Assembly (NCBI GenBank): GCA_031268005.1
Contig: JAIRYA010000064.1
Location: 1-46,819, forward strand
Source of the DNA: Puniceicoccales bacterium
GTDB lineage: Bacteria > Verrucomicrobiota > Verrucomicrobiia > Opitutales > LL51
Direction of reading: 5' to 3'
DNA length: 46,819 nt
Part shown: positions 37,951 to 39,332 of the stretch, in pieces
How the letters are laid out: every line of letters starts with the position of its first letter
How positions within the stretch are numbered: the first letter of the stretch is position 1
Program-made: the position numbers and the translations under genes
The notes under the pieces: model-generated
Database searches by the model: none
The model's input: the letters and a program-made list of their open reading frames with translations, nothing else
What the model was told of the DNA's origin: nothing

Positions 37951-38850
37951 CTAGGATTGCACGGTATTTTTTTTGGGAACGTTGGGGTTTTGCGTTTCGG
38001 GGGATTTGGGTTTCCGCGCAGCTTTTAGGGTAGTTTTCATGGGATTGCCATCCGGTATGGCGTCGATAAATTTATCGAGTACGGCGAGATTGGCTCGCTT
38101 TTCTTTGTTGCTTTGATTTTTGTATTGCTCGATCGCTTTTTTTACATCCTGTTTTTTTAAAATGGTATTTTTAGGCGGTTCCTGAAGGTTTGCGCTATGG
38201 GTCATCGCAGTCTGTGCCATACCTGCAATTGCCATACTAGCCAGCGACTCGCCACCATTTTCCGTAAATTTTCCGGAAAGTGCCGTCAAATCGAGGTTCT
38301 TAAACATCGACATGAGCGACATAAATGCACGCATATTTTCCGGGGAAGCGGCTCTTTCTGCTTCTTCGTCATAGGCCTGTTTAATTTGGGAATCGCCGCC
38401 CGTTCGGTCCAAATAATCGAGGATGCCATCGCCGTCCGTATCGGTTGTTAGTATTTCTTCGAGGACGGCCTGGGTCGCTTCGCTAATGGGAGCATCATTT
38501 GTATCTAAATAATTCGGAATGCCGTCCTTATCGTCATCCCCGAGATCAATCTTTTCTCCAGGTTCTTCCGCTCCCTCATTGCCGTTTGTTAGGATTTCTT
38601 CCGCGGTTGTCATGCCATCGGAGGGAATATCGGAGAGATCCACGTCTTCGCTGGAAGGCATCGCACTGGGGGCCGTTTTTTCTAGGGGACTGCTATCCTC
38701 GACGGAGGTAAGTTCACAATGATCACTGGAAGCAAATTCACTGGAGGTGGAGTTGGAATCTCCGGACTCCATGTAAGTTTGGTAAACCTGCATCTTCTCA
38801 ATCATGTCTTTGGGGGAGGAACCATCAATACTTTCAATGGGATTGCTCAT
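37951..38850 (-). CDS. Acidic Ser/Asp/Glu-rich protein with two EF-hand/thrombospondin-type-3-like loops, a candidate secreted effector
   Basis: 299 aa. The N-terminal 60 aa are Ser-rich with no signal peptide. DDDKDGIPNYLD and DTDGDGILDYLD each follow an EEILT motif. The C-terminus is basic. The start lies 2 nt after the stop of the chaperone-like gene. Confidence 0.6.
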   Translation of the reverse strand: MSNPIESIDGSSPKDMIEKMQVYQTYMESGDSNSTSSEFASSDHCELTSVEDSSPLEKTAPSAMPSSEDVDLSDIPSDGMTTAEEILTNGNEGAEEPGEKIDLGDDDKDGIPNYLDTNDAPISEATQAVLEEILTTDTDGDGILDYLDRTGGDSQIKQAYDEEAERAASPENMRAFMSLMSMFKNLDLTALSGKFTENGGESLASMAIAGMAQTAMTHSANLQEPPKNTILKKQDVKKAIEQYKNQSNKEKRANLAVLDKFIDAIPDGNPMKTTLKAARKPKSPETQNPNVPKKNTVQS

Positions 38851-38852
38851 GA

Positions 38853-39332
38853 TTAGATCACAAAATTAAGATTGGGTGACAGAAGTTCCCCTTCAAAGGC
38901 AGTGGCACCTTCGGCGGGTTGGACTTGGAGAAATTGCAATAGTTTTTCTTTGAGTTGAGAAACCGTTGAAAAGAACTCGTTCATGACTTGTAGGAGATAC
39001 TGATCGTCTAGATTTTTTATGGAAAGTGATCGCGAAAGAATAAATTTATTGGTTTTGGCGTCAATGCCGATATTGCCGTGGCCCGTTCCATTACCGTGGA
39101 GATTAAGTTTCAAAATAAATTCAAAAAATTTTTCCCGATTATCGAAAGGTACATCGCCGATAAGCGCATAAACATAAAGCATTTCACCGTTGCGGGGAAC
39201 TTCAATGATTGTTTCTTCTCCCGTTGATTTTCGCTTAATGTTGCATAAATTATTGTTTCCCAATACAATTTGAAATCCAAGCTGGGTCTCAATGGACTGG
39301 AAAAGTTCATTCACCGTCGATCGATTGTCCAT
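38853..39332 (-). CDS. Type III secretion class I chaperone-like protein (CesT/SycE/Tir-chaperone family pattern)
   Basis: 159 aa and acidic. The pattern IIEVPRNGEMLYVYALIGDVPFDNREKFFEFILKLNLHGNGTGHGNIGIDAKTNKFILSRSLSIKNLDDQYLLQVMNEFFSTVSQLKEKL matches the family consensus (l.l.a.lG.lp..n.e.l...LL..Nl.g..tgga.lglD...n.l.L.....l..ld...f...l..F....e.w...L). Confidence 0.62.
   Translation of the reverse strand: MDNRSTVNELFQSIETQLGFQIVLGNNNLCNIKRKSTGEETIIEVPRNGEMLYVYALIGDVPFDNREKFFEFILKLNLHGNGTGHGNIGIDAKTNKFILSRSLSIKNLDDQYLLQVMNEFFSTVSQLKEKLLQFLQVQPAEGATAFEGELLSPNLNFVI

Follow-up and report, generated by a model that had tools for sequence, protein, structure and literature searches.

A CesT-family chaperone gene and its coupled partner

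On the minus strand of contig JAIRYA010000064.1 from a Puniceicoccales bacterium (46,819 nt, analysed at full length and referred to here as the window), two adjacent genes make up what is well supported as a functional chaperone-client pair. The upstream gene (38853..39332) encodes an acidic protein of 159 residues with an isoelectric point (pI) of 5.04. Its identity as a bona fide CesT-family class I chaperone of type III secretion systems (T3SSs) is strongly supported by Pfam, by an AlphaFold2 (AF2) model searched with Foldseek, and by the NCBI names of its orthologs. The downstream gene (37951..38850; MDR1435504.1, locus tag LBI77_03830) encodes a lineage-restricted acidic protein of 299 residues (pI 4.33), here called X, which is the presumed client of the chaperone and a candidate secreted substrate. 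A first-pass annotation, made from the sequence of the window alone, had proposed such a pair, with X as the effector; the pairing is borne out by the evidence below, while X is a candidate T3SS effector.

Family membership of the 159-residue protein was assessed at several levels. The CesT profile (PF05932) aligns residues 11-127 with profile positions 3-118/119 at 54.3 bits (cutoff 22; E = 1.8e-14), and several orthologs carry the NCBI name "CesT family type III secretion system chaperone." Size and acidity both fall within the class I range (~130-160 residues, acidic). The NCBIfam SicP equivalog scores far under its cutoff (26 vs 99 bits), so the protein is to be regarded as a CesT family member and not as the ortholog of a named chaperone. 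When a profile of the orthologs was run against PDB sequences, only CesT/Tir-chaperone entries were matched (E = 0.003, over nearly the whole length). Searched as single sequences, neither the chaperone nor X matched any PDB sequence.

The predicted structure agrees with this assignment. With 19 orthologs as input, AF2 returned a model of the chaperone with a predicted local distance difference test (pLDDT) score of 81.1 and a predicted template modelling score of 0.75, and its predicted topology, α-βββ-α-ββ-α, follows the canonical class I order (H2-17, E28-32, E39-43, E50-58, H62-77, E86-89, E96-103, H109-136). In a Foldseek search of the PDB with this model, ranks 1-36 were all T3SS class I chaperones (E 8e-8 to 1e-4), including ExsC, STM2138, SchA, SicP, CesT, SycH, SycE, SycT, VecA, SigE, SpcU, SpcS, and SycN-YscB, with ExsC in complex with ExsE at the top. 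Target-normalised template modelling scores reached at most 0.80 and identity to solved chaperones at most 19%, and YbjN-type look-alikes appeared only from about rank 44 (E ~1e-3). The class I consensus that the first-pass annotation had read along the protein is thus upheld by Pfam score, predicted fold, and ortholog naming alike, and the structural comparison it had proposed as a check returned the class I fold, with profiles placing the protein in no unrelated family. As a separate observation, the C-terminal tail of the chaperone (residues ~139-159; 38853-38915) is predicted to be disordered (pLDDT <50), yet its last residues, SPNLNF[VI]I, are strongly conserved across the termite-associated clade described below; a more distant clade ends in …LLML or …NMLML. 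The conserved end is a possible docking motif.

The two reading frames nearly touch. Read on the minus strand, the junction (38848..38855) is GTGATC TAA TC ATG AGC, with the TAA stop of the chaperone at 38855-38853, a 2-nt spacer, and the ATG of X at 38850-38848, exactly as noted in the first-pass annotation. This TAA-tc-ATG arrangement indicates translational coupling of chaperone and X, without a visible Shine-Dalgarno sequence in the window copy. Orthologous loci of the termite clade have either TAAnnATG or an overlapping TAATG, and those of the distant clade have a spacer of 13-23 nt, with GGAGG present in two of them (L004 and L016).

Adjacency of the two genes is conserved in 14 loci, one of which lies in a complete genome (CP095464.1) and one in a rearranged setting. 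Gene order in 13 loci is M23 peptidase or integrase, followed by chaperone, X, an M48 protease, and an AMP-ligase, beside the alpha and spc ribosomal operons. In the rearranged locus (L011; Ncb351_bin42, JAITAK010000038.1, 3050-4573) the pair is kept, with an overlapping TAATG, though both outer neighbours differ: the gene of a TLC/NTT ATP/ADP translocase (595 bits) directly precedes it, and that of a DAC-domain (diadenylate cyclase) protein follows. The pair thereby shows the class IA genomic signature, a chaperone gene beside a single cognate substrate gene. Decay, too, has struck both partners together. In a 4.3-kb contig (L019; JGI 3300042615, Ga0466711_510693, 699-1679), codon 10 of the chaperone gene is an in-frame stop, a further stop cuts the frame short ahead of the conserved tail, and X survives as an N-terminal remnant only (MSNPCDSIRCISGDDKRHEIIQAYMERGE...), with no M48 gene and with short unannotated open reading frames (ORFs) around it.

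Both genes are under purifying selection. Among pairs with dS <2, the ratio of nonsynonymous to synonymous substitution rates (dN/dS, or ω; NG86) lies at 0.07-0.17 in the chaperone and at 0.20-0.34 in X; with dN at ~0.34 for X against ~0.09 for the chaperone, X evolves 2-6 times faster at nonsynonymous sites, and ortholog identity is 54-94% for the chaperone and 28-52% for X. Chance ORFs are excluded by these dN/dS values together with the conservation of both genes. A conserved chaperone with a fast-evolving client is the usual evolutionary pattern of chaperone/effector pairs, and it is because of this pattern, the coupling in all loci, the adjacency in 14, and the co-decay that the two genes are taken to be a chaperone-client pair.

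Protein X and its DxDxDG loops

X is strongly asymmetric in charge. The whole protein has a net charge of -27 and residues 1-100 a pI of 4.05, whereas residues 225-299 have a pI of 10.1 and a net charge of +10. Serine makes up 24% of the first 50 residues and there is a single Cys. No Sec-like signal is present (maximum Kyte-Doolittle 12-mer in the first 30 residues, -0.27; no K or R in residues 1-8), and no transmembrane segment was found in X (maximum 19-mer, 0.83). The Ser-rich, Cys-poor, Sec-less N-terminus and the basic tail, both of which had been pointed out in the first-pass annotation, are therefore real properties of the protein.

Five regions can be distinguished along X, all coordinates being on the minus strand. 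Residues 1-12 (38815..38850) form a conserved tip, M-S-x-P-I-E-x-I-x-G, in which I5 is invariant and G10 is present in at least 90% of sequences, and which is a candidate secretion signal and/or chaperone-contact motif; conservation of the first 10 residues is unusual for type III signals. The pattern of the tip (M1-x3-I5-x2-[IV]8-x-G10) is reminiscent of the "β-motif" [LMIF]xxx[IV]xx[IV]xN through which SptP, YopE, and others bind their chaperones, a likeness that we take as a lead only. Residues 13-100 (38551..38814), a short helix followed by an acidic Ser-rich segment, are poorly conserved and probably disordered, and may be the chaperone-binding region. The loop region comes next and leads into a conserved core at residues 152-225 (38176..38397), which is predicted to be helical and contains Q158, D161, F176, D187-L188-T189, A209-G210-x-A212-Q213, and H218-S219. 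Residues 226-299 (37954..38175) comprise a basic region, helical in the AF2 prediction, and a poorly conserved Lys/Pro-rich tail, as delimited by composition and conservation. Overall, the AF2 secondary structure suggests a helix at residues 13-28, coil to ~104 (pLDDT <50 for 29-104), and further helices in the C-terminal half.

Conservation is distributed unevenly among these regions. Majority-residue frequency is highest in the second loop (0.83), followed by the core at 152-225 (0.64), the N-terminal tip (0.56), the linker at 31-100 (0.42), and the tail (0.37). Positions invariant in the alignment of 14 orthologs are I5, D137, D139, D141, G142, D145, D148, G151, Q158, D161, F176, D187-L188-T189, A209-G210, and A212-Q213. 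One ortholog (L013, 267-1175; Gx481_bin202) has a short tandem duplication, MEFITELRSITEPAMELITELRSAMEP, just ahead of the first loop; the acidic linker therefore tolerates insertions.

The family is small. A word-indexed search of 5.8 billion proteins returned only two homologs of X, and HMMER, run exhaustively on 1.84 billion cluster representatives, returned ~25-30 family members, all of 250-305 residues or fragments, of which those bearing a name belong to Opitutales/Puniceicoccales. No homolog of the core at residues 152-225 was detected outside this lineage. By sequence, X without its loop module is thus a lineage-specific orphan family.

Two loops of the form D-x-D-x-D-G-x-x-D-x-x-D lie at the centre of X, each preceded by EEILT. 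Loop 1, DDDKDGIPNYLD, occupies residues 105-116 (38503..38538, minus strand) and is DxDxDG/thrombospondin type-3 (TSP3)-like; loop 2, DTDGDGILDYLDRTG, spans residues 137-151 (38398..38442, minus strand), has as its 12-residue core DTDGDGILDYLD (residues 137-148), and is a putative Ca2+ site in which D137, D139, D141, G142, D145, D148, and G151 are invariant in 14 of 14 orthologs. When X was shuffled with its composition kept, D.D.DG..[DN]..[DE] turned up one or more times at P = 3.9e-4, and none of 200,000 shuffles had it twice. The first-pass annotation had described an internally duplicated EEILT-loop module that fits the EF-hand loop pattern. Both copies are indeed present in the window protein, and at least one loop in every ortholog (14/14), but two modules occur in only nine of the 14; it is loop 2 that is universal and loop 1 that is present in 9/14. 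The 12-residue pattern itself stands, whereas the EF-hand class does not, since a TSP3/DxDxDG type fits better: Pfam EF-hand_7 matched one of 14 orthologs (E = 0.22), and the canonical EF-hand (PF13499 and relatives) was rejected because both loops have Asp at position 12, the hydrophobic residue is at position 7, and no significant EF-hand match was obtained. The loops are best described as thrombospondin type-3-like DxDxDG loops.

Profile comparisons point in the same direction. Pfam TSP_3 (PF02412) scores 12.8 bits on X, under its gathering score of 25, and among the 14 orthologs nine give a TSP_3 match at E <1 (best E = 0.0046), all sub-threshold. Single short TSP_3 repeats rarely reach a whole-protein cutoff. 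Beyond its own family, the X profile matched significantly only large multi-repeat proteins among the cluster representatives (E 4.5e-22 to 1e-3), and did so at positions ~97-147 only; TSP_3 exceeds its threshold in each of the eight that were checked, six of which also have OmpA and two CHU_C or SprB. Against PDB sequences the X profile gave weak matches only (E 0.2-2): to TSP3 repeats in 5wtl, which belongs to the OmpA family, and to the EF-hand pairs of calmodulin (E = 0.34) and polcalcin (E = 1.5). We infer that the loops bind Ca2+, possibly inside a host cell as the first-pass annotation had suggested. TSP3-type and DxDxDG Ca2+ loops are characteristic of extracytoplasmic proteins, and their presence in a protein without a Sec signal implies a leaderless export route. 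In one locus (L017, 705-1049; Logan SRR30592953 contig), an extra ORF of 114 residues rich in DxDxDG-like loops (EDKDGDGIRDDID, DADRDGTPD) stands between the chaperone gene and X, and it may be a partial duplication or a split of the loop module.

Host lineage and genomic surroundings

Scanned with the profile of the chaperone, the species representatives of GTDB yielded nine loci, eight in Puniceicoccales metagenome-assembled genomes (Ct408, Cd354, Gsp477, Im510, Ncb351 twice, Gx481, and Pcl387) and one in an uncultured verrucomicrobial metagenome-assembled genome. Six of these codes, all but Pcl387, denote hindgut samples of Kalotermitidae, a family of lower termites (Mies and Brune, 2024, supplement; PMC11257099). 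The clade is reported to comprise genomes of <1.5 Mb with NTT transporters, putative flagellate endosymbionts that are kin of the endonuclear Candidatus Nucleococcus (see also PMC8204192). The hosts of the pair are genome-reduced Opitutales/Puniceicoccales of lower-termite hindguts that probably live as endosymbionts of flagellates, in the neighbourhood of the "Nucleococcus cluster." The pair is retained in the complete genome CP095464.1, which measures 878,461 bp.

The pair lies among housekeeping genes. The window contains genes for a Trp/Tyr permease, tuf, nusG, rplKAJL, rpoBC, the str-S10-spc-alpha operons, a HisKA kinase, an AMP-ligase, the M48 protease, X, the chaperone, an M23 peptidase, an MFS protein, a kinase-like protein, TrpRS, and pilin-like genes. 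Downstream of X on the same strand is the Ste24/HtpX-type M48 metalloprotease (36286..37545, minus strand), which keeps this position in 13 of 14 intact loci but lies outside the minimal unit, as it is absent beside the pair in L011. Upstream, the M23 peptidase (39436..40425, plus strand) is divergently transcribed; it holds this place in most loci, with an integrase instead in L005 and L001 and the ATP/ADP translocase in L011. GC content across the region is flat (0.40-0.47), and a recent horizontal island was rejected on this ground and on that of conserved synteny. Scans for promoters and terminators yielded no more hits than shuffled sequence does, and two tRNAs were the only Rfam matches in the window.

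Three further features of the window were recorded. The spacer between the stop of X and the start of the M48 gene (37546-37950, minus strand) is 405 nt long, vs about 40-130 nt in orthologous loci; its predicted RNA fold has a z-score of -8.1, it holds several perfect palindromes (e.g., 37655-37687, CCAAAAGCAGGGGAAA/TTTCCCCTGCTTTTGG), and it has no Rfam match and no other copy within the window. An ORF for a hydrophobic, Cys/Phe/Trp-rich protein of 223 residues without a Pfam match (5388-6059, plus strand) is inserted between rplK (4841-5266) and rplA (6092-6865) in an otherwise canonical rplKAJL operon. Beyond the MFS gene, a gene for a protein of 464 residues (41979-43373, minus strand) has a partial Pkinase match only (residues 198-262, E = 1.7e-9) and shares 50 nt with the MFS ORF at the called start of the latter; related genomes (L004, L006, and L016) carry other genes there.

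A possible secretion module and its known counterparts

The explanation that we regard as having somewhat better than an even chance is that chaperone and X constitute a translationally coupled class IA chaperone-substrate module, and that X is delivered by a T3SS into a host cell; vertical inheritance of the module within the clade is part of this explanation and shares its standing. Ribosomes finishing the chaperone would re-initiate 2 nt downstream on X, so that both proteins would be made together. A chaperone dimer would then bind the acidic, presumably disordered N-terminal ~100 residues of X and keep it secretion-competent, and the complex would dock at the injectisome, from which X would leave the bacterium and enter the host cell. 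There, Ca2+ could bind the invariant DxDxDG loop (and the second loop in most species) and help to order the acidic centre, after which the conserved helical core and basic tail might engage a host target. In favour of this explanation are the family and predicted fold of the chaperone, the linkage of the pair, its evolutionary pattern, the substrate-like features of X (no Sec signal or transmembrane segment, a Ser-rich N-terminus with a conserved tip ahead of a variable acidic stretch, and loops of extracytoplasmic type), the putatively endosymbiotic life of the clade, and the precedent of the MIIA proteins described below.

Several observations weigh against delivery by a T3SS. The window contains no sct apparatus gene, a negative that the first-pass annotation had already reported and that annotation of all large ORFs confirms; none was found in the flanks of the other 14 intact loci either (up to ±10 kb, a negative that covers the flanks only). 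A literature search found no paper reporting a T3SS in Opitutales/Puniceicoccales endosymbionts or dealing with the secretion systems of these genomes, and the only verrucomicrobial non-flagellar T3SS in the survey of Abby and Rocha (2012) is that of Verrucomicrobium spinosum, which belongs to a different class. The chaperone fold is also found in proteins of a cyanobacterium (2plg) and an archaeon (3cxj), in YbjN, and in AmyR, all from organisms without a T3SS, although in Foldseek these rank below all T3SS chaperones (E 1e-4 to 1e-3). The profile of the chaperone returned orthologs only from 5.8 billion proteins, with no paralogous chaperones, in a search limited by its word index. T3SS-bearing organisms often hold several chaperones. 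For X itself, the AF2 model computed from three sequences was unusable (pLDDT 39), and acidic residues such as those at positions 6 and 9 are atypical under some effector signal rules.

Since organisms that lack a T3SS can have the same fold, three other accounts of the pair keep some probability. Under the first, which we consider unlikely though the strongest of the three, the lineage never had or no longer has an injectisome, the CesT-fold protein is a cytoplasmic holdase or regulator, comparable with YbjN/AmyR-type proteins or with the CsrA-binding side activity of CesT, and X stays inside the cell. It would account for the lack of sct genes in every sequenced flank, the silence of the literature on T3SSs in the clade, the lack of paralogous chaperones, and the position among housekeeping genes with no compositional island, and the occurrence of the fold in T3SS-less organisms (2plg, 3cxj, YbjN, AmyR) speaks for it as well. 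However, the matches to T3SS chaperones (E 1e-7 to 1e-5) beat those to YbjN-type proteins (E ~1e-3), the Pfam CesT score is well above its cutoff, X evolves at an effector-like rate, and an invariant TSP3-type Ca2+ loop would be odd at bacterial cytosolic Ca2+ levels. A related and equally doubtful possibility is that a class I chaperone module was kept in injectisome-less protist endosymbionts with genomes of 878 kb to ~1.5 Mb and was co-opted for another export route or for a cytoplasmic Ca2+-responsive function. If these genomes prove to have no T3SS, the pair would be an example of a class I chaperone with a role beyond type III secretion.

A second account keeps the T3SS and gives X, as a secreted substrate, a regulatory or gatekeeping part on the pattern of ExsC-ExsE or SycN/YscB-YopN and not that of a host-acting effector, with the chaperone doubling as a regulator and the loops coupling secretion to Ca2+, as in the low-calcium response. 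That the best Foldseek match is ExsC with ExsE points this way, but its scores are only marginally above those of effector chaperones. X has about the size of a gatekeeper (299 residues) with a C-terminal half predicted to be helical, each genome has one conserved pair and no paralogs, and the conservation of the Ca2+-type loops would fit a sensing role; yet the locus lies outside a T3SS cluster in 14 of 14 loci, and we hold this account to be improbable. Gatekeeper domains (YopN/HrpJ/InvE/TyeA) and the MIIA domain of NopE were looked for in the window protein and 14 orthologs, and Pfam gave no match at E up to 1. Least probable of all is export of X by another leaderless route (type I-like, type IV, or an unknown one) with the CesT-fold protein as an adaptor, cf. 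IcmS/IcmW for substrates of the type IVB system: X is acidic and leaderless with Ca2+-type loops, as type I substrates are, and no T3SS is described for the lineage, but X has neither RTX GGxGxD repeats nor a type I-like C-terminus (its tail is basic and poorly conserved), no ABC, membrane fusion protein, TolC, or type IV genes lie beside the pair, and the chaperone matches T3SS chaperone families specifically.

If X is delivered by a T3SS, the consequences reach beyond the locus. A chaperone-substrate pair predicts an injectisome for this lineage of verrucomicrobial endosymbionts, from which none is on record. Survival of the pair through reduction to an 878-kb genome would offer a handle on the interaction between bacterium and flagellate, with X as a candidate delivered protein; the literature search found no published genome analysis that covers the flagellate-host interaction of this Opitutales/Puniceicoccales clade.

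Among known systems, the class IA pairs CesT-Tir, SicP-SptP, SycE-YopE, and SchA-HopA1 are the nearest counterparts. Like them, the pair has a small acidic PF05932 chaperone of α-βββ-α-ββ-α fold (predicted here), whose gene lies immediately upstream of, and is coupled to, that of a faster-evolving leaderless partner with a disordered N-terminal region. Unlike them, it belongs to a genome-reduced verrucomicrobial protist-associated symbiont and not to a proteobacterium or chlamydia, it lies among housekeeping genes by the ribosomal superoperon with no pathogenicity island, it is known from the chaperone and substrate genes alone, and its chaperone orthogroup is isolated. YbjN/AmyR, 2plg, and 3cxj share the chaperone fold, and the fold is therefore no proof of a T3SS; they rank below all T3SS chaperones in Foldseek, and the window protein passes the CesT threshold of Pfam.

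For X, likenesses are more partial. NopE1/NopE2 and VIC_001052 of Vibrio coralliilyticus, which carry the MIIA domain, are T3SS substrates of acidic, largely disordered character that have two Ca2+ sites and fold when Ca2+ binds; such folding after secretion is proposed to serve "host sensing" (PMC6506597). X resembles them in being acidic and predicted to be disordered, with one or two putative Ca2+ loops, and differs in having no MIIA/DUF1521 match and no evident autocleavage motif; moreover, its loops are of the classical DxDxDG/TSP3 type, whereas the MIIA domain has no classical Ca2+-binding motif (PMC6506597). With EF-hand pairs such as calmodulin and polcalcin, X shares a 12-residue loop with D1, D3, D5, G6, and an acidic residue at 12, a separation of 32 residues between loops with a predicted helix between them, and a weak profile alignment to the calmodulin N-lobe, but it has Asp and not a bidentate Glu at position 12, the hydrophobic residue at position 7 and not 8, and a first loop that is dispensable in five of 14 orthologs. 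The TSP_3 repeats of bacterial OmpA-family and type IX secretion system surface proteins have the pattern D-x-D-x-D-G-[IV]-[PL]-D-x-x-D, the one seen in PDB 5wtl and in X, yet those proteins carry long tandem arrays where X has one or two loops, and X has no signal peptide, OmpA, or CHU_C domain. We know of no described T3SS substrate with a classical TSP3/DxDxDG Ca2+ loop, and X, if the proposed mechanism is true, would add a second and independent example in which Ca2+ triggers the ordering of a secreted protein that is otherwise disordered. Set beside these systems, the pair is probably a module of known class IA type whose lineage is unusual and whose client is an orphan.

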